DNA of 64,000 bases, from the sequence record OR067834.1. The stretch is one strand, 5' to 3'. Origin of the DNA: Escherichia phage KKP 3715. The notes below the pieces were generated by a model. That model was not told where the DNA came from, did not search any database, and saw only the letters and a list, made by a program, of their open reading frames with translations. Below, one piece after another: positions 24,153 through 37,802 of the stretch (position 1 is its first letter; each line of letters starts with the position of its first letter). A program made the translations under genes and the position numbers.

Positions 24153-27100
24153 TTGAACAGGAAACATGCTATGTCAACATTTGACCGTCTGGCAGGTTTC
24201 GCAGACAGCATCACTAATGCTAAGCAAGTCGATGTCTCTACTGCAACCTCTCAGAAGCAAGCTGCACAAGGGCAAAGCCCTTTCCAATTAACCCCAGAGA
24301 ATGCTTACAATCTCCAGACTGGACGAGTAGGTAATCTTGGAATCGGTGCATTCGAACCAGATTCACTTCAGGCAGATTTCACTCAAGCCTCCCCATTAGA
24401 AATCATTAATAAATACGGTAATGAGCAAGGTTTACAGATTCTTAATAGCCGAGCTAATGCTGCTGATGTTGTACGTCAGGACTTATCTAAACAGCGTACT
24501 AACGCAGAAGCATTTGGCGATACTCTTTCTGGTGTTGGTCTTGGTGTTGCTAATACCCTTGGGGGCATTGCTGCTCTTGGCACAGGTCTGGTCAATGATA
24601 ATGCCGGGGCAACCATTGCTTCCGGGATGGATTGGTTGAATGAAGGCGTACACAATCTCCAGTCTGATGCACTGAATGCTACCCGTAAAGTTGTTCAGAA
24701 TCAGAACCAGATTTCTGCTCAAAAGAACCAGAAACTCTATGAAGAAGACATCAAAAATGGGGAGAGCGATTTGGTTGCCTCCTTGTCTCGCATTGGTCGT
24801 GACGCTTTCGATTCTGTTGCTAATACACTTGATAATGGTATGGCTGCTTCCGACGGACTGAGTGAAGGGGTTGGTTCCCTCTTTACTGGTGGTCCACTTA
24901 TTCGTGGTGTATCTGCACTTGGTAAAGTAATGGTAGGTGGTGATAAAGCTGTTAAGGGTATTACCTTAGCTGCTGGGTTAGGTTCACGCCCTGCACAGGT
25001 TGCATTGTCTGCTGGTCGTGTTGCTGCACCTGCTATTGCAATCGGTGGTATGGAAGCTGGTGGTGCATACCAACAGACTGCTTCTGAAATCATGAAGATG
25101 TCCCATCAAGAATTGGCAAGCAAGTCTCCTGTTTACCAACAACATATTGCTGATGGATTATCCCCTGATGAAGCACGTCGTCAGACTGCATCTGAAACAG
25201 GTATCATTGCTGCTGGCTTAACTGCTCCAGTTGCTGCTGCTACCGGCCCATTGGTATCTCGCTTTGAACTTAATCCACTTAAGGTAGGTTCACTTGCAGG
25301 TGCTGGTTCTAATATGCTGCGTGAGACTGTAGAGGAAGGTATTCAGTCAGGCTTTGGTCAATATGCCCAGAACCGTGCAATCAAGGAAAATGTTGATGCA
25401 TCCCGTGACGTTCTCAAAGGAGTCGGTGAGCAAGCAGGTCTGGGTGCACTTTATGGCTTCGGTAGTGCTGGTGTTGCTCAAGCTCCTGGTGCAACTGTTA
25501 AAGCTGCCGGTGCTGCTGCTGGACCTGCTCTTCGTACTACTCTGGCTGGTGCTTCTCTGGTTGGTAAAACATTAGCAAAAGCTGCATCTCCTCTTACTAA
25601 TATCCTGGTTCAACGTGGTGAAGAAGTTGCTAAGCGTAATGAACAAGCATCCCCTGTAGCTGATGCTACGGTTAATGCTGCTGCACAGGAAGCTGCTGCT
25701 CAGGCAGAGCAAGCACAGGCAACTGTACAGGAAGCAGTAGATGCAATGGATATCTCTCCAGAAGAGAAAGCTGCTGCTACCCAATATGCTGCTGACTTAA
25801 CTCAGGCAATGAAGTTTGATCCAGTAGAATTGGAACAAGCTAATCCAACAATCCGTGAAGCTGTTTCTGGTTCCACTAACCGTGTAGAAGCTATTCAGAA
25901 GATGGCTGACCTGGTTAATACTGCCGAAGACCCTAACGTTCAAATGGAAGCAGCAATCCAGATGTATGACAATATCATGTCCATGGATAGCTTCATTAAC
26001 CGTGACCCGGGTGCTCTGGCTAATCTGGAACAGGGTTCCCCTGCTGCTGCAATTGTAGACCAGTTCTCTGGCCTGATGGCTAACGTACAGAATACCCCTA
26101 AAGTACTTCGTGCATTCCGTGCTATTCATTCCATGATTCAGGAACAGGCTGAAGCAGGTAAGCTGAAAGCTACTGAAGAAGCTAACCAAGCCCAGGCAAA
26201 TAACATTGCTATGGCTGCTGATGTATCTCCAGAAGTGCTGGATGCAGATTCAGTGAACATGGTTCTGAAACATGCAAGTGAAGGTAAGATTACATTAGGG
26301 AATCGTCAACGTGCTGCCCTGCAATCTGCTGCTGCCTTGTTACAGGGTGCACGTGAGTTCGACGCTAAAGCAGAAGAACTAGGCTTACGTCCTCAAGACA
26401 TTGTTAGTAAACAGATTAAAACCGATGAGTCTCGTTCTAATGAAGGACAGTACTCTGCGTTGCAACATGCGAAACGCATTCGTTCTGCGTATAACTCTGG
26501 TAACTTCGATTTGGCCTCCGCTTATCTGAGCGACTTTATGAAGTTCGCCCAGCACATGCAGAATAAGGTCGGAGCGTTGAATGAGCATTTGATTTCGGGG
26601 AATGCGGATAAGAATAAGTCTGTTCATTATCAGGCTCTCTCGCCTTCCCGTGAATGGGTACGTAGTCGTACTGGCCTCGGTGTCAATCCTTACGATACCA
26701 AGTCTGTTAAGTTTGCCCAGCAAGTAGGACTGGAGGCCAAAACCGTAGCTGATATTGCTAATGCACTTGCTACGGCTTACCCGGAGCTTAATGTTTCTCA
26801 TGTGAAAGTTACCTCGTTGGATTCACGTCTGAACAAGCCAGCTGCCCAGGTAGTTAAAGAGTTCCGTCAAGGTGGTCTTGATGCCACTCAGTCTCAACAG
26901 ACTAATGAACCAGTGAATCAGGTTGATGAATCTCCTGCACCAGTGCAAGAGGACACTACTACTGTACAGCCTAAAGCTAAACCAGTGGTAGAAAATAAGA
27001 CTGCTCCTACTAAGGAGACTAGTCCAAAAACAGAAGAAGTCTCTACTACTAAGTCTGAAACAGTAGAAGCTACCCCCACTAATGAGGATACCATCCAGGA

Positions 27101-30100
27101 AGTAGCCAAAACCAAAACAGAAATGGAAACAGTGTTCCCTGTCTATAACAATGAAAAGACACCGAACCAGTTCCTGAAAGCATTTACCTTACCAGAGGAA
27201 CCTAAGTCTCGTACCGTTGGTTCTGAATCTCCTTTGGCTGATATTAAGCAAGCACTGTCTTCTGTTGCTCGCTTTGAGGCATTTACTCAAAAAGAAAATA
27301 ACGTTCTCACAGGTGATGTGATTAAGCGTTATCAGGACTTAATGGACTTTGGGGAAACTCTGAAGACTACTTTGTCTGAACGATTGGCTAAGTTCCTTGC
27401 TAATAAGAACGTTGGTAAACGTTTTGCAGAAGGTACTGAAGCTAACCGTTGGGTAGGTGGCAAACTACTTAATATCGTTGAACGAGATGGTGACACCTTT
27501 AAGTTTAATGACCAGTTGTTAGAGACTGCTGTACTTGCTGGTCTGCAATGGCGACTGACTGCTACACAGAATGCTGCCATTAAAGACATGAAAGATGTGG
27601 CTGCTATTACTGGTGTAGAAGCATCTTTGTTACCAGAAGGTATTCTGGCTGAGTTTGAGAATGCCCAGACTCTGGTAGAAGCTACTAACTCACTGGCTCA
27701 GAAGATTGAATCCTACTGGGGTTTAAACCGTAATCCTAATGCACCACTTGGGTATACAAAAGGCATCCCAATGGCAATGGCTACAGAGATTCTGTCTTCC
27801 CTCATTGAGATGGGTGAAGTTAAAGAATCTATGCTGGATGTGTCCGAGATTGACCCAGACTCCAATAAGACTGTCGGTCTGTATACTATTGAGAAGCTGG
27901 ATGACAACGATGCCATTAACAAATTCCCTACTGCTATTGAGGAAGCTGTCCTCTTAGAACCAGAAGAGAAAATGTATTTTGATGATGATATTCCTTCTGT
28001 GGCTCAAACTCAGTTGCGTAACCCTGCTGTTAAGAATACCCCAGAACAGAAAGCTGCACTTAAAGCTGAACAGGCTACTGAGTTCCGTGTACATATGCCG
28101 ATGGTTAACTTCTATGAAGCATTAGGCCGTGACAACATTCTGGAACTGATGGGTGCTGGTACTCTTAATCCTGATTTGCTGAATAAAAACACTGCCAAAT
28201 CTTTGGAAGGTAAAAACCTGTCCGTATCCATGGCATATGATTCTCTGTTCGGTGTAATTAATCAGATACGAGAACAAGAGAATGGTCTGGATACTCCTAT
28301 TCACTACGGTTACAACATGACTCGTGTAGGTCGTATGCAGATGCTTGGTAAGAACAACCCACAATCCAGTAAACTGGTTCGTGAAGCAATTCTGCCGACC
28401 TTCTCTACTATCGACTTGAGTAATGAAAACAGCCAAGCATTCTCTGACTTCCAGCTAGGACTGGCTCAGGCATTAGGCATCAAGGTACATAAAATGTCAC
28501 GTGAAGCTATGTCTGAAAATCTGACCAAAGCTCTGGAAGGCAATCTGAAGCCTGCTGTTGATATGATGGTTGAGTTTGATAAGGCTGGTTACTTACCTAC
28601 TGATGCAGTAGATATTCTGAAGACTTCTCTGGGTGATAACAAATCCTTCGTGGCTCTCATGGCTCTGATGGAATATGCCCGTTACCTGAACAGTGATGAC
28701 CGTGCTAATTTTACTACTCCCTTGTACGTTGAAGCTGATGGTGTAACCAACGGCCCAATCAACGCAATGGTATTAATGACTGGTGGTAAGTTCACGCCCG
28801 ACTGGATTAAGAACACTGCCAAAGGTGGTTTGTTCTTTGGTCGTGCTGGTAAAACGATGAACGAACACTGTTCTATCGACGATAATGTTGACTTGTATGA
28901 AGCATCTACCAATGGTCTGCAACAAGCACTGAATGAGTTACGTACTACTTACCGTAACAACGTTCCGGTTATGAGCCAGATGAATCATCTCCAGAAGTTA
29001 ATGGACTTGTTCATTAAAGACTTTAATCTGAACGAAGACGGTACTCTGGACCTGAAACGTGGTATCGCTAAAAACCCACTGACCATTACCATCTATGGTT
29101 CTGGTGCACGTGGTATTGCTGGCAAGATGGTTAGTGCAATTACTGACACCATCTACGAACGCTTCAGTGACGTTCTGCAAGCACGGGCTGCTGACCCTAG
29201 CATTTCCCCAGCTATGGCAATGTTTGGTAAGGAGGCTGCGTCTGAGGCTGATGCTCAGGCTATGCTGGATACTTTCCTTACTTCTATGGAAGCACTGACT
29301 GGCAATGTTCCAGTTATGCGTAAAGGTGAATTGTCTATTCAGCAAGTAGATGGTGCTCTGACTGGTAAGTTAGACCCTCAGAAGTTTACCGTATCCGGTA
29401 ATGCTCTGAAGAACTTACAAGAGAACATGCTCCACCTGTTCGTTGAACCAATGCGTACCGGTATCCGGAATACTGTTGGTGAAGGTCTGATGCACTCTAC
29501 TGAGAATTTGCAGAAGGCTACCCAGATTCAATCTCTGGTATTGCAGGATATGTTCCAGCAAGCAGTACAGGCTAAGCTGGCAGAAAAAGAAAAAGACCCA
29601 ACCTGGAAGAAGGGTGATTTCTTAACGCAGAAAGAACTGAATGAAATCCAGGAATCATTATCTCCACTGGCTCCAATGATTGAGACTGGCTCACAGACTT
29701 TCTACATTGCTGGCAGTGAGAATACTGATGTTGCTAACCAAGTACTGGCTACTAACTTAGATGATCGTATGCGTGTGCCAATGAGCATCTATGCTCCTTC
29801 ACAGGCAGGTGTTGCAGGTATTCCATTTATGACCATCGGTACTGGTGATGGCATGATGATGCAGACCCTTTCTACTATGAAGGGTGCTCCGAAGAATACC
29901 CTGAAAATCTTTGATGGTATGAACATTGGTATCAGTGACATTACTGATGCAAGTCGTAAAGCTAACGAGGCTGTATACACTTCCTGGCAGGGGAACCCTA
30001 TCAAGAATGTTTATGACTCCTACGCTAAGTTCATGAAGAATGTAGACTTCAGCAAACTGTCTGATGAAACCAAACAGGCTATCGCTAAATCTGCTCTGGA

Positions 30101-33100
30101 ATATGACCTGCGTGAGGGTGCTACCGATGACCTGTTACGTGCAGGTGCTGAACAGATTGAACGTAACCTACGTAACATTGCTCTGGGTGTAGATATTCGT
30201 CACAAAGTGATGAACCAGGTACAGACCACTGTTGACCAGATGGCTGCTGTAGGTGCTCCTTATGTGAACAACGGTAAAATCTCTCTGGAAGGTCTGACTG
30301 TAGACCAGCAAGTAGCTAAGCTAAACGAACTATTTGATGCTGAATTAAATAAGCGTCGTGATGCAGTACGTGCTGCTAAAGCAGAACCTGTTAAAGAAGT
30401 GCCAGCTATGGAACAAGTTGGTCGTGTACTGAAGTCTGGTGTACGTCTGTTGTCTAATACTGCTATCACTAAGCTGGCTAAAGAGATGACTTCTGAACAG
30501 CAAGCAGTATTGAAAGAAGTACAGAAATCCCTTGCTGCTAAAGACTACAAGGTTGTTTACGGTACTCCTGCTCAACTGGATGCTTATGCTATTGAGAAGA
30601 ACATTACTCGCCCAGCACCGGAAGATATTGAAGCTGCCGAAGCTGGTAATGCATATGGCTGGACTAACTTTGATGATAAAACCATCTACTTAGTTACCCC
30701 TTCCTTAGAGACTCTGGTTCATGAATTAGTACATGCTTCTACTTTTGAATCTGTACTGGCTCACTATGAGGGTACTCCTAACGAAGCAGTCCAGAACATC
30801 GAAGATCTTATGAACCAGTTCCGTACTCTGGATGTTAAGAACGAATCCCCGGCAGTACGTGAAGCATATGCTGATGCACTCAATACCATTAACGGTCACT
30901 TGTCTAATGGCTTTATTGAACCTGCAATGGCTAAAGCTGCTGCACTGAATGAGTACATGGCATGGGGCTTAACCAATCGTGAACTGATTGGTAAGCAGAA
31001 GAAGACCACTGCACTGAAAACTATGGTTCAGTCTGTGTATGAAGCAATCAAGCGTCTGGTATTTGGTCGCAAGAAAGCACCTGCTAATGCAGATGATATG
31101 TTCTCCGGATTACTGTTTAACTCTTCAGTAGTTATGCGTGGGCAGGCTCCTACTGCTGCTGTATCCAAAGACACTACCTTGTTCCATAACAAAGCATATG
31201 GAGATAATACCCGTCTTGAAGAATTGGGGCAGACCTTTGATAAGCTGATTACTAACTACATTGGTTCTGAACCAGTGCAGCAAGTAATTCGTAAAGGTAA
31301 GTTCTCTGATGCAGTAGTGAATGCAACTAAAGTAACTCGTGATGTTCAGGCTTATGGCTTTACCATGAATATGCAGGAACAGCGATTGTTCACTAATATC
31401 GTTGCTGCTTTGGCTACTGAAGCTGCTATTAGTCCGGCTGCTCTTTCTCGTGCACAGGAATACTATGCACACGTTACTAAGAACCTGACCGTTGAATCAT
31501 TCATGGCTGACCCGGATAGTACTAACCCTGCTGACCGTTACTATGCTCAACAGAAGTTCGATACCATCATGGGTGCTAACAATATTGAGTTTGATGCACA
31601 AGGTCGTTCTTCCTTACTGCCTACCTTTGTTGGTCTGGCAATGGTAAGTGAAGAGGTGCGTAACGTACTGGCTAACATTCCTGTTATGAAAGCAGATAAG
31701 AAATCTGGTAATACCGTTGATGCAATGCTGACTAACATTGGTACTGCTGCAATGTCTAGCCTGAACGCTCGTGTAGCAGGTGATACCAAAGCTACTAACG
31801 TACAGGAAGGTATGGATGCACTGGCTCAGACAATCATGCAGACAAGTCTTAATGCACAGTCATTCTATGATTCCGTTGCTACTCCTAGTGGTAATGCTAT
31901 TGACCGTGCTAACCAGTATCTGGTGGATTCTATTGATGCACTGTCTACTCGTGCTTTAGAAAGTGCTCGTGAAGTTGCAGCTAATACCAAGAACCCATTG
32001 GTTAAGGGTGCTGCTCATGCTGCACAATTGGTGGCTGCTATTGCTACTGAGAAGAACGGTGCAATCGTGGCAGAAGGTGTTATGGCTGCAATGAACCAGG
32101 GCAAGGTATGGCAACCTTTCCACGACTTGGTTAATGACTTAACTGGTCGTACTAAGAGCAATGCTTCTGTATACGATTTGATTAAAGCAGTTCGTGCACA
32201 GGTACAGGCTGACCGTCAGCAGTTCCGTGAACATCTGCCTACCACTATCGCATCTAAGTTCAGCCGTAAGCTGACTAACGATGAGTGGAAAGCAATGCAC
32301 ACCGGTATGGGTAAAACTGACTTAGCTGTTCTGCGTGACACTATGTCTCTGGCTGAAATCCGTGACCTGCTGTCTGACCAGAAGATTGTTGACCGTGAAG
32401 TGAATAAGCTGGAAGCAGATTTGCAGAAACAAGCTGGTCGTAACTGGCCTCTGATTAACCGTAAATCTAAGCAACTGGCTCAGTACATGATTAACGGTAC
32501 GGTCGGTAATAACCTGCTGCGTAATGCTACTGCAATCTCCCGTATGCTGGGTGAACGTCAGGCTGCTCGCTCTACTGTAGATGTAGCTCAACTGGATAAA
32601 CTGATTACCCTGTATGCACTGGAAGCAATGAACAAGTCCGACCGTGAGACGTTATCTTCACTGGCTCAGACAGAAGTTGAGGGAATGGACTTTGCTACTT
32701 CTTACCTGGTTGGACAACGTAAAGATGAAATGGCTAAAGCCAAGTCTGATATGCGTGCAACCCTGAACCAGTACAAAGGGCATATTCCTAGTGAGACTAA
32801 ACAGGGTGTTAATCTGATTGTTGCTGAAGATAGCCAGTTTGCTGATTTGATTGAGAAGTCCTATGTACGTCTGGGTACTTATCAAGGTAGCTCTGCTAAC
32901 CGTGGTCCGGCACGTAGCTATTACTTTGCACCAGTACAGGCACAGGCTCCTTTCTCACAGGGTATCCTACAGAACGTTCGTAATACTGCTGGTGGTGTAG
33001 ACCTCGGCACAGGCTTTACGATGGGTTCCATGGTAGCTGGTCGTATTACTGACAAGCCTTCCGTAGACCGTATCACTAAAGCACTGGCTCGTGGCGAACG

Positions 33101-34523
33101 TGGTAATGAACCACTGCTGCCTGTATATGACGATAAAGGTAATGTAGTTGCCTATGAGCAATCCATTGACCCTAATATGCTGAAGCACATTGAGGGTGAG
33201 AACCATCTTGCCCGTGCAATCGGCGTATGGCGTGGTCGTCAGGTGGAAGAAGCTAAGGCTCAGCGTTTCAACGATATGCTGATTGAGAACCTGCATAGCA
33301 TGTATGAGAACGACATTAAGATGTCTGCCTCTAATAAGTCCCAGTACGTTAACCTTCTTGGTTCTAAATTGGACCCAGTAACTGCTGATGCTCTTAAGCT
33401 AATGAATAGTGAAACCCGTCAGAAAGCAGAGAGTTTGTTCGGTGAGGGTGAACTGTGGGTACGTCGTGACATGCTTAATGATGCACTTGGTTATCGTGCA
33501 GCTTCTGTAGGTGATGCCTGGTCTGGTAATTCTCGTTGGTCTCCGGAAACATTGGATACCTTTAAGAAAGCTATGCTGGGTGTATTTGGTAACCGTGCCT
33601 ATAAGTACACAATGGGTGGTGAGAACCTGGTTCAAAACTTAGTTAAAGAAGCTAAGACTCTGATTGTAGTTAAGTCAGTAGTCGTACCTGCTGTTAACTT
33701 CTTAGCTAACCTTTACCAGATGGTTGCCCGTGGTGTACCGGTTAAGAACATTGCTAAGAGCATTCCACAGAAGACTGCTGAGATTAACCAGTACCTTAAA
33801 TCACGTCTGCGTCAGGTAGATGCAGAAGCAGAATTACGTGCAGCTACTAACCCGAACCAGATTCGTAAACTTAAGGCTGAGATTCAGTCCATTACTGATA
33901 GCCATAAGCGTATGAGTATCTGGCCTCTGTTGGAAGCCGGTGAGTTCTCTTCAATTGCAGACGCTGGTATTGGTCGTGATGACATCCTGATTACTGAAGG
34001 CAAACTCCACGAATACATGGATAAGCTGGCAGATAAGTTACCTAAGTCTGTGCGTACTGCCGGTCGTTATGCACTTATTACTAAGGATACTGCTCTGTTC
34101 CAGGGTATCCAGAAGACGGTTGAGTACTCTGACTTTATCGCTAAAGCAATCATCTATGATGAACTGACTCAGCGTAAAGGTAAGACTCGTGAAGAAGCAC
34201 TTGGGCGTGTAACGGAAGAGTTCGTTAACTATGACCGTTTACCTGGTCGCTTCCGTGGGTACATGGAAAGTGTTGGTTTAATGTGGTTCTACAACTTTAA
34301 GATTCGTTCAGCTAAGGTTGCTGTGTCCATGATTCGTAATAACCCTGTACATGCAACAATGGCGATGCTGGCTCCAACTCCTACCATGTTTGGTAACGTT
34401 GGCTTACCTATTCAGGACAACATCTTTAGTATTGCTGCTAAGGGTAGTCTGGATTACTCATGGGGCTTTGGTCAGGGTCTTCGTGCTCACAACCTGAACC
34501 CTTGGATGAACCTGGTAAACTAA
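24153..34523 (+). CDS. virion-encapsidated RNA polymerase (giant, N4 vRNAP-like)
   Basis: 3456-aa ORF, the hallmark of N4-like phages. Track start is TTG at 24153; ATG at 24171 with AGGAAA RBS is the more likely start. Confidence 0.9.
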   Translation: MNRKHAMSTFDRLAGFADSITNAKQVDVSTATSQKQAAQGQSPFQLTPENAYNLQTGRVGNLGIGAFEPDSLQADFTQASPLEIINKYGNEQGLQILNSRANAADVVRQDLSKQRTNAEAFGDTLSGVGLGVANTLGGIAALGTGLVNDNAGATIASGMDWLNEGVHNLQSDALNATRKVVQNQNQISAQKNQKLYEEDIKNGESDLVASLSRIGRDAFDSVANTLDNGMAASDGLSEGVGSLFTGGPLIRGVSALGKVMVGGDKAVKGITLAAGLGSRPAQVALSAGRVAAPAIAIGGMEAGGAYQQTASEIMKMSHQELASKSPVYQQHIADGLSPDEARRQTASETGIIAAGLTAPVAAATGPLVSRFELNPLKVGSLAGAGSNMLRETVEEGIQSGFGQYAQNRAIKENVDASRDVLKGVGEQAGLGALYGFGSAGVAQAPGATVKAAGAAAGPALRTTLAGASLVGKTLAKAASPLTNILVQRGEEVAKRNEQASPVADATVNAAAQEAAAQAEQAQATVQEAVDAMDISPEEKAAATQYAADLTQAMKFDPVELEQANPTIREAVSGSTNRVEAIQKMADLVNTAEDPNVQMEAAIQMYDNIMSMDSFINRDPGALANLEQGSPAAAIVDQFSGLMANVQNTPKVLRAFRAIHSMIQEQAEAGKLKATEEANQAQANNIAMAADVSPEVLDADSVNMVLKHASEGKITLGNRQRAALQSAAALLQGAREFDAKAEELGLRPQDIVSKQIKTDESRSNEGQYSALQHAKRIRSAYNSGNFDLASAYLSDFMKFAQHMQNKVGALNEHLISGNADKNKSVHYQALSPSREWVRSRTGLGVNPYDTKSVKFAQQVGLEAKTVADIANALATAYPELNVSHVKVTSLDSRLNKPAAQVVKEFRQGGLDATQSQQTNEPVNQVDESPAPVQEDTTTVQPKAKPVVENKTAPTKETSPKTEEVSTTKSETVEATPTNEDTIQEVAKTKTEMETVFPVYNNEKTPNQFLKAFTLPEEPKSRTVGSESPLADIKQALSSVARFEAFTQKENNVLTGDVIKRYQDLMDFGETLKTTLSERLAKFLANKNVGKRFAEGTEANRWVGGKLLNIVERDGDTFKFNDQLLETAVLAGLQWRLTATQNAAIKDMKDVAAITGVEASLLPEGILAEFENAQTLVEATNSLAQKIESYWGLNRNPNAPLGYTKGIPMAMATEILSSLIEMGEVKESMLDVSEIDPDSNKTVGLYTIEKLDDNDAINKFPTAIEEAVLLEPEEKMYFDDDIPSVAQTQLRNPAVKNTPEQKAALKAEQATEFRVHMPMVNFYEALGRDNILELMGAGTLNPDLLNKNTAKSLEGKNLSVSMAYDSLFGVINQIREQENGLDTPIHYGYNMTRVGRMQMLGKNNPQSSKLVREAILPTFSTIDLSNENSQAFSDFQLGLAQALGIKVHKMSREAMSENLTKALEGNLKPAVDMMVEFDKAGYLPTDAVDILKTSLGDNKSFVALMALMEYARYLNSDDRANFTTPLYVEADGVTNGPINAMVLMTGGKFTPDWIKNTAKGGLFFGRAGKTMNEHCSIDDNVDLYEASTNGLQQALNELRTTYRNNVPVMSQMNHLQKLMDLFIKDFNLNEDGTLDLKRGIAKNPLTITIYGSGARGIAGKMVSAITDTIYERFSDVLQARAADPSISPAMAMFGKEAASEADAQAMLDTFLTSMEALTGNVPVMRKGELSIQQVDGALTGKLDPQKFTVSGNALKNLQENMLHLFVEPMRTGIRNTVGEGLMHSTENLQKATQIQSLVLQDMFQQAVQAKLAEKEKDPTWKKGDFLTQKELNEIQESLSPLAPMIETGSQTFYIAGSENTDVANQVLATNLDDRMRVPMSIYAPSQAGVAGIPFMTIGTGDGMMMQTLSTMKGAPKNTLKIFDGMNIGISDITDASRKANEAVYTSWQGNPIKNVYDSYAKFMKNVDFSKLSDETKQAIAKSALEYDLREGATDDLLRAGAEQIERNLRNIALGVDIRHKVMNQVQTTVDQMAAVGAPYVNNGKISLEGLTVDQQVAKLNELFDAELNKRRDAVRAAKAEPVKEVPAMEQVGRVLKSGVRLLSNTAITKLAKEMTSEQQAVLKEVQKSLAAKDYKVVYGTPAQLDAYAIEKNITRPAPEDIEAAEAGNAYGWTNFDDKTIYLVTPSLETLVHELVHASTFESVLAHYEGTPNEAVQNIEDLMNQFRTLDVKNESPAVREAYADALNTINGHLSNGFIEPAMAKAAALNEYMAWGLTNRELIGKQKKTTALKTMVQSVYEAIKRLVFGRKKAPANADDMFSGLLFNSSVVMRGQAPTAAVSKDTTLFHNKAYGDNTRLEELGQTFDKLITNYIGSEPVQQVIRKGKFSDAVVNATKVTRDVQAYGFTMNMQEQRLFTNIVAALATEAAISPAALSRAQEYYAHVTKNLTVESFMADPDSTNPADRYYAQQKFDTIMGANNIEFDAQGRSSLLPTFVGLAMVSEEVRNVLANIPVMKADKKSGNTVDAMLTNIGTAAMSSLNARVAGDTKATNVQEGMDALAQTIMQTSLNAQSFYDSVATPSGNAIDRANQYLVDSIDALSTRALESAREVAANTKNPLVKGAAHAAQLVAAIATEKNGAIVAEGVMAAMNQGKVWQPFHDLVNDLTGRTKSNASVYDLIKAVRAQVQADRQQFREHLPTTIASKFSRKLTNDEWKAMHTGMGKTDLAVLRDTMSLAEIRDLLSDQKIVDREVNKLEADLQKQAGRNWPLINRKSKQLAQYMINGTVGNNLLRNATAISRMLGERQAARSTVDVAQLDKLITLYALEAMNKSDRETLSSLAQTEVEGMDFATSYLVGQRKDEMAKAKSDMRATLNQYKGHIPSETKQGVNLIVAEDSQFADLIEKSYVRLGTYQGSSANRGPARSYYFAPVQAQAPFSQGILQNVRNTAGGVDLGTGFTMGSMVAGRITDKPSVDRITKALARGERGNEPLLPVYDDKGNVVAYEQSIDPNMLKHIEGENHLARAIGVWRGRQVEEAKAQRFNDMLIENLHSMYENDIKMSASNKSQYVNLLGSKLDPVTADALKLMNSETRQKAESLFGEGELWVRRDMLNDALGYRAASVGDAWSGNSRWSPETLDTFKKAMLGVFGNRAYKYTMGGENLVQNLVKEAKTLIVVKSVVVPAVNFLANLYQMVARGVPVKNIAKSIPQKTAEINQYLKSRLRQVDAEAELRAATNPNQIRKLKAEIQSITDSHKRMSIWPLLEAGEFSSIADAGIGRDDILITEGKLHEYMDKLADKLPKSVRTAGRYALITKDTALFQGIQKTVEYSDFIAKAIIYDELTQRKGKTREEALGRVTEEFVNYDRLPGRFRGYMESVGLMWFYNFKIRSAKVAVSMIRNNPVHATMAMLAPTPTMFGNVGLPIQDNIFSIAAKGSLDYSWGFGQGLRAHNLNPWMNLVN

Positions 34524-35384: not shown

Positions 35385-35553
35385 TATTAGCCTCGTAGAG
35401 TGGTTTGAGTTTGTATTTAAACATGACTGCGTTGTTATAGGCTACGCTACCTGCAAACACCAAAGACTTACGTCCCCGGTTATCCGTTACCTCATAGGCA
35501 TACGGGGTTAAGATTAGGTCAATCATATGAATCGTCCTATAAGTAGTTCTCAA
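35368..35553 (-). CDS. hypothetical small protein (questionable)
   Basis: 61-aa ORF with TTG start lying inside the U-tract of the upstream terminator; an internal ATG at 35526 is possible. Confidence 0.3.
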   Translation of the reverse strand: MRTTYRTIHMIDLILTPYAYEVTDNRGRKSLVFAGSVAYNNAVMFKYKLKPLYEANNGNSK

Positions 35554-35590
35554 ATAAAAAAGTCCCCCAGAGTGACGGCTCTGAGGGACT
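35551..35590 (-). terminator. intrinsic terminator (12-bp stem, then UUUUUUAUUU on the minus strand)
   Basis: Plus 35561-35572 agtcccccagag pairs with 35579-35590 ctctgagggact (one mismatch); closes the tRNA-region transcript. Confidence 0.65.
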
Positions 35591-35826
35591 TAGTGACTTT
35601 AACGCAGTCAACGAGGCAGGCCGTCAAACTACTATCACTACAGGGTTAAGCGACCATGGGTTGATAGCCCGATAGTAGTAAGACGTAGGTTTGGATTTCT
35701 AAGTGTTACCTTCACTAGCGAAATTCCCGTCGAGGGGAATAACAATACATTAGCAGCCACTGGACTGTCTTACCAGTGTTGTCTTTAGAGTGCTGTGCAA
35801 TCAGGACTATGTTACTGCTGAATGGG

Positions 35827-35900
35827 TGTCCACTACTGGATTTGAACCAGTGACCTTCTGATTATTAGTCAGTTGCTTTCCCAGTCTAAGCTAAGTGGAC
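35827..35900 (-). tRNA. tRNA gene (cloverleaf parsed by eye; anticodon loop reads CUAAUAA, i.e. anticodon AAU, Ile-like; identity uncertain)
   Basis: Minus strand: acceptor GTCCACT/AGTGGAC, D-arm GCTT-AGACTGGGA-AAGC, anticodon stem ACTGA/TCAGA, T-arm ACTGG-TTCAAAT-CCAGT, discriminator A; 74 nt. Confidence 0.6.
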
Positions 35901-35909
35901 ATAATATGA

Positions 35910-35982
35910 TTACCCGGGCAGGAATCGAACCTGCGTCCTAGTTAGTTTACTAGTGGGGCTTTACCACTAAGCCTACCGGGTA
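35910..35982 (-). tRNA. tRNA gene with atypical anticodon arm (4-bp stem with 8-nt loop, or 5-bp stem with 6-nt loop); identity undetermined
   Basis: Minus strand: perfect acceptor TACCCGG/CCGGGTA, D-arm GGCT-TAGTGGTAA-AGCC, T-arm GCAGG-TTCGATT-CCTGC; anticodon region CUAG-UAAACUAA-CUAG. Confidence 0.55.
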
Positions 35983-36796
35983 TTAATGGAAGGGTAGTGC
36001 AGCCTTACACTGCCACAGATTGACTGCCTCGTAACTAGTACGAGCTACCCATAATAGGGTGAGGCTGTACCTCTGGGTGTAGCAGCCCAGTGTTGTGCAC
36101 CTACTGTAGAACATAAGTACAGCCTCAATTAGGTGAGTCATGCCAGGCTCTAACTGGCTCCTTCTTCGCAATCCTTACATACCCCTACATAATTATTGCG
36201 TTAAGCTTTTTTTGTTTAAGTTTAAGTGAAGGCGTTCTTGCTGACTCATTGTTTGGTTTCCTGATTACATGGGCTTCCACCATATCATGACGAGTTTGAG
36301 TCTGTGGAGCGACTTCCTCAATGCAGTTACCTGCCACCAGTAAACTGGCGTTCTTTGGTCCATCGTCTTCAACCATACTGTCTTAACCATATAGGGATTC
36401 AGGCAGTTTTGGCGGTAATCAGGAAATCTGGTTTGAGATGGGAGTCCGAGTCCTGTACAGCCTTACCGTCTCCACATTGGCAGCGTATCTAGAATAGCAC
36501 TTCCGGGTACGGATTTAACTGTTACATCTCAAATAGGGTAGGGGCGTCCAGAGGTTTCATCTAGTACTTACGCCGTCGTATTTACGACTTACCCCCATAA
36601 TTCCTTTAATCCAAAGAAATAATCTTTAAATATTCTCTTGTTAGATGAGGAGTTTGACGAATGACTAGTTCGTTACTACCTCGTTGTTTGCCATAAGTAC
36701 CTGGCGACTTCTATTTGGTTTTACCAATTCAGAGTAACACTCACACAAGAATGTGTCTTTGAATACCGGGAAGTATAAACGAGTGCTACTTTGAAT

Positions 36797-36830
36797 TGGT
36801 TACCAGTGAAGGATTCGAACCTCCGGTTGG
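36797..36830 (-). ncRNA. tRNA-like element: canonical T-arm plus acceptor 3-prime strand, discriminator and encoded CCA; 5-prime half not canonical
   Basis: Minus strand reads GGAGG-TTCGAAT-CCTTC-ACTGGTA-A-CCA. The only complementary acceptor partner (UGCCAGU) lies about 120 nt upstream at about 36914-36920. Confidence 0.3.
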
Positions 36831-36922
36831 AGTCTATAGCTTACCGCAGCAGCCCTCCAATCTAGCGGTGTCACACTTAGTCCAAACTTGAACATGTCAA
36901 GCCATCTCGTGCAACTGGCAAT

Positions 36923-36988
36923 TGGTTCCGGCGTCTGGACTCGAACCAGAACACTCATGTCGTGCACGACACTAGTACCTACACCGGA
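36923..36988 (-). ncRNA. tRNA-like minihelix (7-bp acceptor, T-arm, encoded CCA) of only ~63 nt, lacking separate D and anticodon arms
   Basis: Minus strand: UCCGGUG ... central hairpin UGUCG-UGCA-CGACA ... UCUGG-UUCGAGU-CCAGA-CGCCGGA-A-CCA. Confidence 0.35.
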
Positions 36989-37050
36989 ATAGTTGCCAGG
37001 GATTCCACCTGGCTCCATCTGTTTTTATAGTCACTCAGATATCGTCTGGA

Positions 37051-37126
37051 CTATGACCATCTGGGGATTCGAACCCTCATCTCGGTGGCCAACCGTGCAT
37101 TTGCCTCATGCTACTCTGGTCATAGT
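37051..37126 (-). ncRNA. tRNA-like structured element (9-bp acceptor-like helix enclosing a GGTTCGAATCC T-loop-like motif)
   Basis: Plus 37051-37059 ctatgacca pairs with 37118-37126 tggtcatag; internal GGGTTCGAATCCCC; T-stem weak. Confidence 0.3.
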
Positions 37127-37802
37127 TGGTCCCCCGTTTCTAATACATGGACGGGAGAACTCCACGATCGTTTGTTAATCAGGACGACTCACTCCTGACT
37201 GAGGTTACGCTGTTAGGCGACCATCAGATACGCTTCTTCGTTTGCATTTATGTTATTGGTTCGTTTCTAAAAAACCGCATAATCGCTACGAAAACTATCA
37301 ATGAGTACACTCTGTGGATTCATTTTACAGGGACTTCATTTCATTCCCTGACCTCAATCAAATGTACTCATTGATAGCCCATAATAGGAGGGAGGGGACG
37401 AATCCTCCCTTTATACCCTATGTTGCATGTAAGATCTAACAGTTCGGTGTTGTAGACGGATGGGCTTATGCTTACCGGCATTAAACTCCCGCCCCCTTAT
37501 TGGGCTGGGTTAATTAATATACTCAACATTGAGCAGTTAGTTTGATAAGGGATCTGAAGCCTTATCCCAAAGATACTAACCTTTGGGATATAGCCTAAGA
37601 TTCAGAAATGGCCCCTATAGGAGAGGCCATTGATTAACCCGAATGTTGCTTTACATTTTCTGAGGTAACCAATTCTTAAAATAGTCTGTCTGACGGATGG
37701 GGGGCCACCCCTAGCGTCAGTGCCATACGGCAAAGATTAAGTTAAGAAAGGTTATGATAGGAGTTCCTATCTCAAAGGATTCTGACAGAACCCTTCACGA
37801 TA

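Follow-up and report, generated by a model that had tools for sequence, protein, structure and literature searches.

A Phage-Encoded Tag Module Resembling the Messenger Part of tmRNA, with Complementarity to Host tmRNA, in the Stable-RNA Gene Cluster of a G7C-like Coliphage

We found that Escherichia phage KKP 3715 (sequence record OR067834.1) encodes, at positions 37130-37297 on the minus strand of the 64,000-nt stretch analysed here (the window), an RNA that resembles the messenger part of tmRNA and has no tRNA-like part attached. This tag module consists, in order, of a 32-nt antisense domain, an A-rich linker, a start-less frame of 10 codons and two pseudoknots. At the sequence level, it has extended and conserved complementarity to a defined site of host tmRNA. 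We see an even chance that the stable-RNA cluster to which it belongs contains a module that would dock on host tmRNA, covering the tag template there and providing one from the phage. The broader proposal, that a widespread phage RNA family reprograms ribosome rescue through ~30-bp docking and provides a viral tag in trans, is plausible but more tentative. A preliminary description of the region placed two tRNA genes and three tRNA-like elements correctly but overlooked the module.

Structure and Conservation of the Tag Module

The features of the module and of its 5' flank are listed below.

37378..37409, minus strand: GC-rich hairpin, then CCTATTATGGG; candidate signal for the start of transcription (motif)
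37295..37377, minus strand: leader hairpin, 15-bp closing helix CUAUCAAUGAGUACA / UGUACUCAUUGAUAG with a variable tip
37266..37297, minus strand: anti-tmRNA domain UAGUUUUCGUAGCGAUUAUGCGGUUUUUUAGA, inverted copy of host tmRNA nt ~67-106
37246..37265, minus strand: A-rich single-stranded linker, ending in AUAAAU directly 5' of the resume codon
37213..37245, minus strand: tag frame GCA AAC GAA GAA GCG UAU CUG AUG GUC GCC UAA, encoding ANEEAYLMVA-stop
37166..37199, minus strand: pseudoknot PK2, stem 1 GUCAGG/CCUGAU, with loop GUCG pairing with 3' CGAU
37130..37164, minus strand: pseudoknot PK3, stems UGGA/UCCA and CUCCCG/CGGGGG

The CCTATTATGGG motif is repeated at 36048-36061 and also precedes the module in ECBP1. 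Judged from its sequence, the hairpin with this motif is a candidate promoter of the module; a consensus sigma-70 scan made no call at 37378-37409. An equivalent leader helix of other sequence occupies the same place in lambdoid phages (GGUAAGAGCA/UGCUCUUUCC) and in Ackermannviridae (CUGUUUGGGCA/UGCUCAAACAG). KpV2811-type copies begin at a promoter of their own and have no leader hairpin.

The tag of E. coli tmRNA is ANDENYALAA. In the linker of the module, U at −5 and A at −4 match U85/A86 of E. coli, and AUAAAU-GCA was invariant in the alignment (A1). The region 5' of the frame is nearly invariant; within it, CUUUG/CAAAG could pair in HK620-type sequences, though not in that register in the window. 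An in-frame UAG lies 8 codons 5' of the resume codon, with AUG, GUG and UUG absent between the two. All 132 copies that were compared (132/132) have 10 codons and a stop, often doubled, with third positions that vary synonymously, and their consensus over 63 clusters is A-N-[DE]-[DEN]-x-[YFVM]-L-[AM]-[AV]-A. This pattern of substitution points clearly to coding-type constraint on the tag frame. An alternative ATG frame over the tag region was rejected, its length not being conserved among the 132 copies. Sub-threshold matches to the tmRNA_permuted model recur at the tag site in unrelated phages.

The pairing of both pseudoknots was estimated for 63 representatives. Stem 1 of PK2 was paired in 99% (slid controls, 48-54%) and stem 2 in 90% (slid controls, 28-63%), each with several compensatory pair types. 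Stem 1 of PK3 was paired in 92%, one of its pairs occurring as CG, UA or GC, and its stem 2 has been swapped wholesale among lineages (GCCC/GGGC, GCCCUGA/UCAGGGC, GGCGGGAG/CUCCCGCC). Over PK2 and PK3 together, pairing was 90-99% against 26-63% in slid controls.

Complementarity to Host tmRNA

The target site of the near-invariant 5' domain takes in the 3' strands of PK1 together with U85/A86, the resume codon and codons 2-6 of the tag. RNAduplex paired the domain with nt 64-107 of E. coli K-12 ssrA (−33.1 kcal/mol) in a duplex of about 29-31 bp. When its reverse complement was aligned to ssrA 68-106, the score was 28, against 14.2 ± 2.1 for shuffles; the reverse complements of the various domains lay 5.5-11 sd above shuffles at these positions. 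All 40 distinct 5' domains (40/40) pair with one site of the E. coli K-12 ssrA, the host sequence used for the comparison, from nt 64 (nt 69 for a single domain) to nt 98-130. The pairing energies of the 40 domains were −28 to −43 kcal/mol; with random bacterial 363-mers as the target they were −19 to −27 ± 3-4. Variation in the domain is located at looped-out bases and opposite G74, and lineage-specific insertions gain pairs with host AAACG. In 63/63 representatives, pairing with the host exceeded pairing with the element's own tag region (mean −36.6 vs −16.2).

The minimum free energy dimer of the co-fold contains the domain-tmRNA duplex, with a net gain of only −2.9 kcal/mol in this pseudoknot-free model. 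By the raw duplex energy of 40-mers the domain does not stand out (z = −2.1); GC-rich segments gave similar values.

Relationship of the Module to tmRNA

The module is not a tmRNA, because no tRNA-like domain is attached to it. ARAGORN detected no tmRNA in the window or in the 132 extended copies. We also scanned for acceptors, defined as a T arm followed by 7 nt, N and CCA with a matching 5' strand. No G3:U70 acceptor was found beside the module except for one of canonical length (77 nt), which ARAGORN calls tRNA-Arg, and no CCA or acceptor hairpin was found in the segment 5' of the module. This segment is a hairpin whose tip is non-homologous in close relatives, and it is missing where a promoter adjoins the module; a permuted tmRNA, with its acceptor piece encoded 5' of the coding piece, was rejected on these grounds. 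No Rfam family matched the module at threshold, and scores within the tmRNA clan were 9.7-33 bits against gathering thresholds of 47-84.

Distribution and Expression Context

We found the module in 206 phage records that belong to unrelated types, among them N4-like phages, the P22-like HK620, ~46-kb siphoviruses and ~157-kb Ackermannviridae. At least 120 IMG/VR contigs (63 clusters) have it as well, as do 147 of the 5,426 complete E. coli genomes; none of the E. coli matches listed bears an annotation at the module site. Most of the G7C-like relatives examined have it; in G7C itself the match is limited to the first 41 nt of the query, and N4 lacks the module.

In HK620 and lambdoid prophages the module lies within the Q-antiterminated late leader, and in KpV2811-type phages behind a TTGACA-17-TAGATT promoter. 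We found no description of the module RNA in the literature searched. HK620 (NC_002730) is not among the ssrA-bearing phages in surveys (PMC4131195, PMC11915505). The RefSeq record of HK620 long predates those surveys.

The Stable-RNA Gene Cluster

On the minus strand, positions 35552-37409 are where this G7C-like (N4-like) coliphage has its cluster of stable-RNA genes. The cluster includes one functional tRNA (Ile, anticodon AAU); an odd tRNA and elements A, B and C, which are tRNA-shaped and unable to decode; and two more conserved structured RNAs, D and E.

37053..37123, minus strand: element A, degenerate tRNA-like RNA, acceptor AUGACCA/UGGUCAU of 7 bp, fold z = −1.0
36989..37052, minus strand: conserved 64-nt leader 5' of B, hairpin CCAGG-UGGAAUC-CCUGG
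36923..36988, minus strand: element B, 66-nt tRNA-like RNA, fold −26.6 kcal/mol, z = −3.1
36797..36920, minus strand: element C, 124-nt tRNA-like RNA (motif scan)
36435..36530, minus strand: block D, conserved structured RNA, closing helix GAGAUG/CAUCUC covarying AU/GC
35910..35982, minus strand: odd tRNA-like gene (ARAGORN; Rfam, 41.7 bits), fold z = −2.7
35827..35900, minus strand: tRNA-Ile, anticodon AAU, loop CUAAUAA (ARAGORN; Rfam RF00005)
35752..35819, minus strand: block E, conserved structured RNA, closing helix AGCAGU/GCUGCU around two inner hairpins
35552..35591, minus strand: intrinsic terminator closing the cluster, 13-bp stem then T run, annotated likewise in AL25

The region had been described as an ORF-poor cluster of tRNAs and tRNA-like genes, and this agrees with our results: 35551-37802 contains no ORF longer than 75 aa, and every element was recovered in its place. 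The T-loop motif GGTTCRANTCC occurred five times in the 64-kb window, always on the minus strand and between 35838 and 37075 (shuffles: mean 0.19; five or more in 0/100). ARAGORN and Rfam, which were among the tools proposed for checking the cluster, both call two minus-strand genes (35827-35900 and 35910-35982). The only match to YrlA (RF02553) scored 21.7 bits against a threshold of 69 and ran across two adjacent tRNAs; 11 further loci with T-arm cassettes gave none.

The odd gene has perfect acceptor, D and T arms. Its anticodon arm, already noted as unusual, proved non-canonical by ARAGORN, Rfam and folding alike: ARAGORN reports 'tRNA-???' with a 2-base anticodon, the RF00005 model skips 18 nt of the arm, and folding yields a 5-bp stem and a 6-nt loop, equivalent to 4 bp with an 8-nt loop. 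It has neither a 5-bp stem with a 7-nt loop nor a conserved anticodon, the 'anticodon' (counted from the 3' side) differing among close relatives (ACU vs ACC). PBM-2 and ST4 share the arm apart from one difference in the loop, which is not the same in the window and PBM-2. At the 3' end the window has AUCA and PBM-2 has ACCA; Bas96 and ECBP1 lack the gene.

The three further elements with T arms reported earlier do exist, and B and C end in encoded ACCA as stated. Encoded CCA is no special mark of these elements, since the tRNAs of the homologous N4 cluster all end in CCA followed by AAUU. Element A has a weak T stem and lacks CCA; it received no ARAGORN or Rfam call in the window and sits where ECBP1 and PBM-2 have a 'tRNA-Cys(ACA)/pseudo' call. 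Element B has the acceptor UCCGGUG/CGCCGGA, the T arm UCUGG-UUCGAGU-CCAGA and then A73-CCA. Its single internal hairpin, with a UGCA loop, covaries, and the position of the anticodon loop is occupied by this 4-nt loop. Identity of B is 92-99% among N4, G7C-like and Klebsiella N4-like phages, its leader belongs to a 139-nt block with 94% identity to phage N4, and two records annotate B as 'tRNA-Undet'. As a TLD-only tmRNA fragment (DS6A type) B was rejected: the shape fits, but pair 3:70 is C:G; B has no match in the Rfam tmRNA clan. Element C combines the acceptor UGCCAGU/ACUGGUA, an insert of ~76 nt, the T arm GGAGG-UUCGAAU-CCUUC and A73-CCA. Its single-sequence fold is undistinguished (z = 0), and its acceptor has compensatory variants (UACCAGU/ACUGGUA, UAUCAGU/ACUGAUA, UACUGGU/ACCAGUA). 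The earlier suggestion of simple pseudogenes does not agree with these compensatory changes in C or with the 94-97% identity of B from N4 to G7C-like phages. Block D has 91% identity to N4 and no Rfam match; block E has 75% identity to N4 over 140 nt, with compensatory pairs in three helices.

Proposed Mechanism and Alternative Explanations

If the docking interpretation is correct, the phage RNA, once transcribed, would anneal to host tmRNA over ~30 bp. Annealing would open PK1 and cover U85/A86 along with the resume codon and codons 2-6 of the host tag, and the phage resume codon would end up ~20 nt from the former PK1 site. Host Ala-tmRNA-SmpB would still enter stalled ribosomes, translation would resume on the phage template, and rescued chains would end in AANEEAYLMVA, not AANDENYALAA. 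The tags of other phages, such as AANDDVVLMAA, would likewise replace the ClpXP degron AANDENYALAA. Products would be tagged in infected cells or lysogens, and a C-terminus of LMVA, LAVA or LMAA rather than ALAA may alter recognition by ClpXP and ClpAP. We know of no natural example in which a ribosome resumes translation on a template that is joined to tmRNA only through an intermolecular helix in this position; the known two-piece tmRNAs pair in another manner. Replacement of PK1 is tolerated in published work, and the proposed docking would disrupt PK1.

The complementarity could also be explained by a pure antisense inhibitor that blocks tagging or leads a nuclease such as RNase III to cleave the ~30-bp duplex, with the frame and pseudoknots as leftovers of an ancestral tmRNA fragment. 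In its favour, the complementarity coincides precisely with the resume codon and the bases that set the frame, the module has no tRNA-like domain attached, and the TLD-only RNA of mycobacteriophage DS6A is, in the summary given in PMC4131195, a precedent for inhibition of tmRNA by a phage RNA. However, over 132 copies in 63 clusters the module keeps a stop-closed 10-codon frame with synonymous changes and tmRNA-like residues, UA at −5/−4 is invariant, and the pseudoknots are maintained by compensatory change, although a vestige would decay. Moreover, blocking resumption without offering a template would presumably trap ribosomes that the phage needs. We consider this explanation unlikely.

It is quite improbable that the module is the coding piece of an autonomous multi-piece phage tmRNA whose acceptor is another phage RNA (B, C, a 'T cassette' or a 'Y' module), its match to host tmRNA reflecting shared ancestry only. 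The top Rfam matches are indeed two-piece tmRNA models, most contexts have RNAs with a T arm and CCA no more than a few hundred nt away on the strand of the module, and complementary boundary strands could close the module as helix P2 does. However, there is no constant partner: N4 has B without the module, HK620 has the module without B and C, and flanking cassettes are non-homologous among close relatives. The candidate acceptors lack the alanine determinant G3:U70, and KpV2811-type RNAs begin just 5' of the module. In addition, the 5' domain is the reverse complement of the host sequence rather than a same-sense homologue, and it does not track the element's own tag. Slightly more doubtful still is a tRNA cluster with decaying pseudogenes, debris or anticodon-nuclease decoys, in which the tag frame would be coincidental. 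In favour of this, phages are known to have tRNA variants that escape anticodon nucleases. Relatives have differing intact or 'pseudo' tRNAs at the same positions, truncated tRNA ends exist (a 3' remnant of tRNA-Met in KpV2811), and element A is degenerate. Against this, B, D and E are 75-97% conserved across phage genera with compensatory pairs, and the tag module is conserved across unrelated families under coding-type and structural constraint. No observation made here favours decoys; B lacks an anticodon-like loop, and the loop of the odd tRNA varies between close relatives.

Comparison with Known Systems

The module resembles bacterial tmRNA (SsrA; RF00023) in its start-less GCA resume codon with UA at −5/−4, its 10-codon frame of the form A-N-D/E...-A-A/V-A with the stop inside a small hairpin, the H-type pseudoknots 3' of the frame, and weak recurrent covariance-model matches. 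It differs in having only two downstream pseudoknots, no tRNA-like domain, acceptor end or G3:U70, and no significant same-sense similarity to E. coli ssrA; and, unlike any tmRNA, it bears a domain antisense to tmRNA. Its best Rfam matches are the two-piece tmRNAs of alpha- and beta-proteobacteria and cyanobacteria (RF01849-51, RF04321), at 19-33 bits against gathering thresholds of 47-84. In these, as proposed here, the template and the aminoacylated part are separable and joined by base pairing. However, their two pieces are products of a single gene, joined at the acceptor stem and helix 2, whereas the proposed partner of the module is a complete host tmRNA, at PK1 and the tag region.

The cluster is like that of phage N4 in its tandem same-strand tRNA genes with encoded CCA, interspersed stable RNAs and terminator. 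The T4 tRNA region has the small stable RNAs C and D, and such RNAs are processed like tRNAs. The cluster differs from those of N4 and T4 in the identity and function of the extra RNAs.

Phage-encoded tmRNAs have been reported in mycobacteriophages Bxz1, Cali and others and in Bacillus phage G (PMC4131195, PMC11915505), and DS6A, as summarised in PMC4131195, carries only the tRNA-like half of tmRNA, which interferes with host tmRNA. The RNAs of these phages are recognised by tmRNA finders. The present phage likewise carries a putative RNA of trans-translation and, like DS6A, one tmRNA half; here it is the messenger half with an antisense anchor, which ARAGORN and Rfam miss. The small RNAs and anti-sRNAs of pathogenic E. 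coli prophages (PMC4104026, PMC7547250) are similar as lambdoid late/pR' small RNAs that pair with host RNAs, but their targets are mRNAs or sRNAs and, unlike the module, they have no tag template. The term 'tmRNA' is not mentioned in Tree et al. 2014 (PMC4104026) or in some recent prophage-sRNA papers.

If the docking interpretation holds, this would be the first virus that rewrites the message of tmRNA instead of bringing a tmRNA of its own or inhibiting trans-translation, and the first natural case of an intact tmRNA given its tag template in trans. The long-standing question of the role of trans-translation in phage infection, where some phages need the host tmRNA, would become testable, a conserved unannotated stretch in lambdoid late leaders, including those of pathogenic E. 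coli prophages, would be accounted for, and a natural portable means of altering the fate of rescued proteins would be at hand. The conservative part alone is a new, abundant and readily recognised family of phage non-coding RNAs missed by annotation pipelines, and B, C, D and E are additional uncharacterised stable RNAs for the N4 model system.

The tRNA with Anticodon AAU

The tRNA-Ile scored 66 bits against the RF00005 gathering score of 29. Its AAU anticodon had been pointed out as odd, and we found it conserved: the 7-nt loop C-U-AAU-A-A, with U33 and a purine at 37, is unchanged in four relatives, while the anticodon and acceptor stems vary compensatorily. This conservation together with the compensatory stem changes indicates that the tRNA is functional and was not mis-parsed. 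A tRNA-Ile(aat) is present too in the siphovirus contig L057.

Genomic Setting and Content of the RNA Cluster

The region is a cluster of stable RNAs in which one stands out: a widespread phage RNA, so far without a description, that is probably directed at the host tmRNA. The region matches G7C-like coliphages (Gamaleyavirus, N4-like Schitoviridae; 85-96% identity), and the ORF at 24153-34523 (plus strand, 3456 aa) corresponds in size and location to the virion RNA polymerase gene that is annotated beside the equivalent N4 cluster. The RNA genes lie on the minus strand, flanked by two small protein genes. Their counterpart in N4 is the tRNA cluster of the gp47-gp48 interval, made up of tRNA-Asn, Ser and Thr, one tRNA-like gene of no assigned class, and tRNA-Pro. 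The features are as follows.

Features of the RNA cluster.
35552-35591, minus: strong terminator, end of the cluster
35752-35819, minus: block E, structured RNA; 75% identity to N4; compensatory pairs
35827-35900, minus: tRNA-Ile(AAU), loop CUAAUAA
35910-35982, minus: odd tRNA-type gene; perfect acceptor, D and T arms; anticodon arm with a 6-nt loop on a 5-bp stem, or an 8-nt loop on a 4-bp stem
36435-36530, minus: block D, structured RNA; 91% identity to N4; compensatory pairs
36797-36920, minus: element C, 124-nt tRNA-like version with a large insert
36923-36988, minus: element B, 66 nt; acceptor, hairpin, T arm and ACCA; fold z = −3.1
37053-37123, minus: element A, degenerate, with a weak T stem and without CCA; z = −1 for the fold
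37130-37297, minus: tag module, with the putative anti-tmRNA 5' domain, A-rich linker, 10-codon frame and pseudoknots PK2 and PK3
Before the leader hairpin, minus: GC-rich hairpin and CCTATTATGGG; motif again at 36048-36061

The preliminary description, made by a model from the sequence, had reported an ORF-poor region with two tRNA-type genes and three further tRNA-shaped elements. This agrees with our results: no ORF >75 aa was found in 35551-37802, both tRNA genes were called concordantly by ARAGORN and Rfam, and the three elements (A, B and C) exist. Five copies of the T-loop motif GGTTCRANTCC lie in the 64-kb window, all on the minus strand between 35838 and 37075; 0.19 copies would be expected by chance. 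Encoded CCA, which had been singled out, is indeed present; because CCA followed by AAUU forms the 3' end of every gene in the N4 cluster, it is the local norm and no special mark. The observations were confirmed, and the interpretation was supported in part: why B, D, E and the module are conserved is not explained by a reading as decoys or pseudogenes.

A Conserved Tag Module Related to tmRNA

A permissive Rfam scan gave a 25-bit match to tmRNA_permuted at 37213-37343, and sub-threshold tmRNA-type matches recurred at the equivalent site in relatives and in unrelated phages. The part aligned to the model is the frame GCA AAC GAA GAA GCG UAU CUG AUG GUC GCC UAA, that is, ANEEAYLMVA followed by a stop; the E. 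coli tmRNA tag is ANDENYALAA. By BLAST, the module core of ~100 nt is found at 75-87% identity in 206 phage records of unrelated kinds, including N4-like phages, the P22-like HK620, ~46-kb Klebsiella and Salmonella siphoviruses, ~157-kb Ackermannviridae and an 89-kb Salmonella phage, where it is almost never annotated. Among 5,426 complete E. coli genomes, 147 carry it, chromosomal every time, and no annotation was found at the site among the matches listed. A pattern scan of IMG/VR added at least 120 further copies, which together with the earlier loci formed 63 clusters at 88% identity.

In all 132 of 132 copies the GCA frame runs for exactly 10 codons before the stop, and a second stop often comes next. 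The residues follow A-N-[DE]-[DEN]-x-[YFVM]-L-[AM]-[AV]-A, and many variants are set apart by synonymous third positions alone (GCG/GCA/GCC/GCU, GUU/GUA/GUC and CUG/UUG, beside GAU/GAA/GAG). The hexamer AUAAAU directly before GCA is invariant, and the phage U at −5 and A at −4 are the counterparts of E. coli U85/A86. No AUG, GUG or UUG lies between the in-frame UAG eight codons upstream and GCA. An ordinary small gene in the overlapping AUG frame was rejected, since its length is not conserved (5 to 13 codons among copies). Judged from this pattern, the GCA frame is constrained as a translated tag would be.

Downstream of the stop codon there are two H-type pseudoknots. Pairs were counted in a MAFFT alignment of the 63 representatives, and the controls were obtained by sliding the partner column one or two positions.

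Pairing of the pseudoknot stems (stem; paired cells; slid controls; compensatory variants).
PK2 stem 1; 99%; 48-54%; CG/UA, GC/AU/CG, AU/GC
PK2 stem 2; 90%; 28-63%; CCGA/UCGG, CCAG/CUGG, CCAA/UUGG, GUCG/CGAC
PK3 stem 1; 92%; 26-61%; CG/UA/GC at one pair

Stem 2 of PK3 is wholly exchanged among lineages (GCCC/GGGC, GCCCUGA/UCAGGGC, GGCGGGAG/CUCCCGCC), and the stop codon is situated in the loop of a small hairpin (79% paired). The predicted layout of frame and pseudoknots is the architecture of the tmRNA messenger domain. The module is very probably a real, conserved RNA related to tmRNA.

Absence of a tRNA-Like Domain

ARAGORN found no tmRNA in the window or in any module copy, and no Rfam family scored above threshold at the module, so that YrlA, GOLLD, ROOL and any other Rfam family were rejected. 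A scan for T arm, acceptor and CCA near the module returned no G3:U70 acceptor except one of canonical length (77 nt), which ARAGORN calls tRNA-Arg. With no tRNA-like domain by any of these three approaches, a standard or permuted tmRNA was rejected. The hairpin upstream of the module was considered as a permuted tRNA-like domain and rejected too, because its tip is non-homologous in close relatives and it has neither T loop nor CCA; it is missing from the KpV2811-type siphoviruses. Closure of helix-P2 type by the flanking strands is possible in HK620 and Carvaje, but is not kept in the KpV2811-type copies or the window. Elements B and C were rejected as partners on account of their discordant distributions: N4 has B and lacks the module, and HK620 has the module and lacks B and C. 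Since no tRNA-like domain is attached and the neighbours are not constant partners, the module is neither a tmRNA, scoring below gathering, nor a member of the two-piece family.

A Probable Antisense Domain against Host tmRNA

The ~35-45 nt that precede the linker scarcely differ across lineages, whereas PK2 and PK3 vary freely. We compared this domain with ssrA, the tmRNA gene, of E. coli K-12, taken from the genome record; only E. coli ssrA was compared. RNAduplex predicted duplexes of −33 to −43 kcal/mol, while random bacterial 363-mers gave −19 to −27 ± 3-4 and shuffled queries were similar. The same site was selected by 40 of 40 distinct domain variants, with the first base at nt 64 (nt 69 for one variant) and the last at nt 98-130. 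Its core (nt 64-107, CUCGUAAAAAGCCGCAAAAAAUAGUCGCAAACGACGAAAACUAC) spans the 3' strands of PK1, the pseudoknot upstream of the tag frame, as well as U85/A86, the resume codon G90-C-A and codons 2-6. In the window, UAGUUUUCGU would pair with ACGAAAACUA (10 Watson-Crick pairs), GCGAUUA with UAGUCGC (7), and UGCGGUUUUUUA with UAAAAAGCCGCA (12).

When reverse-complemented, the domain aligned to ssrA 68-106 at a score 5.5-11 sd above shuffles, two gaps included. By this alignment, the DNA of the element carries the host resume region in inverted form and, behind it, a putative tag template in direct orientation and diverged in sequence. Recent capture of host ssrA was rejected, the same-sense local alignment being not significant (z ~2 or less). 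Lineage-specific insertions between UUUUCGU and GCGAC (CACGUUA, CAGAGUUG, UCUCGUUGUGC) add pairs to host AAACG, and variation falls mostly at two looped-out bases and at the base opposite G74, which is U, G or C, with C giving the perfect match. In each of the 63 representatives, pairing with the host came out stronger than self-pairing (on average −36.6 against −16.2), and the domain is not matched to the diverged tag of its own element. Other conserved segments (boundary strands, PK3 loop) showed no complementarity to ssrA (z ~0) and were rejected as tmRNA binders.

The minimum free energy co-fold includes the duplex, with a net gain of just −2.9 kcal/mol in a pseudoknot-free model, and when sliding 40-mers from across the whole region were scored as duplexes with ssrA, the site did not stand out by energy, since GC-rich segments scored equally. 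Thus, the antisense case rests on the evolutionary pattern and not on thermodynamics. On that pattern, the phage RNA probably pairs with host tmRNA.

Possible Mechanism

In the best-supported reading, the phage RNA would anneal to host tmRNA and mask the resume codon and tag. Its own resume signal and frame would then be presented ~20 nt from the former PK1 site, and the host tRNA-like domain with SmpB may bring ribosomes to the phage template, leading to a tag swap. In two-piece tmRNAs the template can be held non-covalently, PK1 is replaceable in tmRNA, and ClpX recognises a C-terminal LAA. The module may work like the coding piece of a two-piece tmRNA. That the phage RNA swaps the tmRNA tag is possible, if somewhat doubtful. 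The main rival is that the RNA is purely an inhibitor of tmRNA; the coding-type constraint on the tag frame speaks against it. An autonomous phage tmRNA in several pieces, the second rival, would be expected to have a constant partner and a G3:U70 acceptor, and the module has neither.

The nearest viral precedents for the module are phage-encoded tmRNAs and the TLD-only RNA of mycobacteriophage DS6A (PMC4131195, PMC11915505). Unlike the module, these are recognisable as parts of tmRNA and lack an antisense anchor. Our search of the literature on phage tmRNA-like RNAs, antisense RNAs to tmRNA and prophage anti-sRNAs found no description of the module RNA, of its tag peptides or of a phage RNA pairing with tmRNA.

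Expression Context and Cassette Arrays

The HK620 module is flanked by pR'/qut on one side and by the annotated late terminator on the other, upstream of the holin gene, and in other lambdoid prophages the module directly follows a tR'-type terminator. Because of this position in the late leader, every Q-antiterminated late transcript would have to contain it. KpV2811-type siphoviruses have a TTGACA-17-TAGATT promoter with a putative start just before the module; these copies and those of Ackermannviridae have their own consensus-like promoters. A sigma-70 consensus scan gave no match at the GC-rich hairpin and CCTATTATGGG motif of the window.

The lambdoid, siphovirus and Ackermannviridae copies lie within arrays of exchangeable cassettes, whose contents vary by phage. 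The separator is a sequence-conserved boundary helix, (C)ACAGGUAAGAGCAUUG ... CAGUGCUCUUUCCGUUGUGGUGAA, of ~15-20 bp (HK620, L007: 619-634, 688-705, 871-886, 955-975; equivalents in L012, L008, L010, L016, L028 and L054). As the same strands occur on both sides of the module, alternative pairings are possible. The helix may serve as a processing site, for RNase III or of another kind, or as a linker in recombination.

A tRNA-shaped "Y" module of ~100-130 nt usually follows the boundary helix (L007 967-1065, L012 953-1058, L010, L016, L035, L054). Its acceptor is (G)UUGUGGUG/CACCACAAC, without G3:U70; the hairpin GCGCAGGCUGAUGCGC is conserved, and another, GCCGG-AGUUCAGCA-CCGGC, resembles a T arm. 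The 3' end is G-CCA in HK620, A-CCA in L035 and AUCA or AACA elsewhere. A tRNA-like "T cassette", in which a single hairpin (GGCGACGUCGGAGAUCGCC) accompanies a canonical T arm (AGAGGGUUCGAAUCCCUAC), stands before or after the tag module in three lambdoid prophage contigs (L028, L016, L054). The boundary strands lengthen its acceptor to ~15 bp, so it has no free ends; an analogous unit with another closing helix is found in N4 (L133, 1690-1790). Downstream of the module, lambdoid arrays L014, L016 and L035 share a second recurrent inter-cassette segment, GUGGGUAACAACGGGCAU...GCCUUAGUAAAUCCC...GU(U/C)AGCUCCACGAAACG. KpV2811 (L008) carries a truncated tRNA-Met 3' end at 1077-1104 (UUCGAAUCCUGUCGCGGGAACCA), where the related pYD38-A has intact tRNA-Arg and tRNA-Met. 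By this comparison, the tRNA fragments in clusters of KpV2811-related phages are leftovers of deletions.

tRNA Genes and Neighbouring Elements

The AAU anticodon and the non-standard anticodon arm noted in the preliminary description were both borne out. The loop of tRNA-Ile(AAU) is the same in PBM-2, ST4 and ECBP1, with compensatory changes in the anticodon stem (ACUGA/UCAGA to ACCGA/UCGGA) and in the acceptor stem, and anticodon AAU is also found in a tRNA of an unrelated siphovirus contig. As judged from covariation, this is a real tRNA. The anticodon arm of the odd gene is retained in just two close relatives with differing loops, and we read this gene as probably tRNA-like rather than decoding. 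In Bas96 (L003, 2414-2498) the acceptor and T arm of tRNA-Ile are kept and the anticodon arm is replaced by CAGGAAAGCUUCGAGAGAACAAGGUGUCUG, the same arm as in the HK620 Y module; internal arms appear to be swapped between tRNA scaffolds.

Element A occupies the position of a "tRNA-Cys(ACA)/pseudo" call in relatives. Element B together with the 64-nt leader upstream of it (36989-37052) is 94% identical to N4, far above the surroundings; the leader is as conserved as B and contains the hairpin CCAGG-UGGAAUC-CCUGG. Instead of being a minihelix on its own, element B may form the 3' portion of a larger functional RNA. The acceptor stem of element C shows compensatory variants, and no Rfam family matched blocks D and E.

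Some G7C-like relatives have an extra atypical tRNA-like gene, absent from the window, between a promoter-like motif and the leader hairpin (ECBP1, L005, 1114-1185; L004 1096-1167; L006 1115-1186). It comes out as tRNA-Ala(cgc) in ARAGORN and as no more than a weak tRNA-Sec match in Rfam, and it has neither CCA nor G3:U70. Several strong hairpins, kept in ECBP1, lie at 37540-37800 between the module and the upstream gene stop (37803), such as GGCCUCUCC-UAUA-GGGGCC, with a U-rich tract after it, and AUAUCCCAAAG...CUUUGGGAUAA. Within the "non-coding" region, a short ATG frame of 18 aa (MSQQERLHLNLN..SLTQ; ATG AGT CAG CAA GAA CGC CTT CAC TTA AAC TTA AAC ... TAA) is kept in both the window (36194-36250, minus strand) and ECBP1 (L005, 2135-2191).
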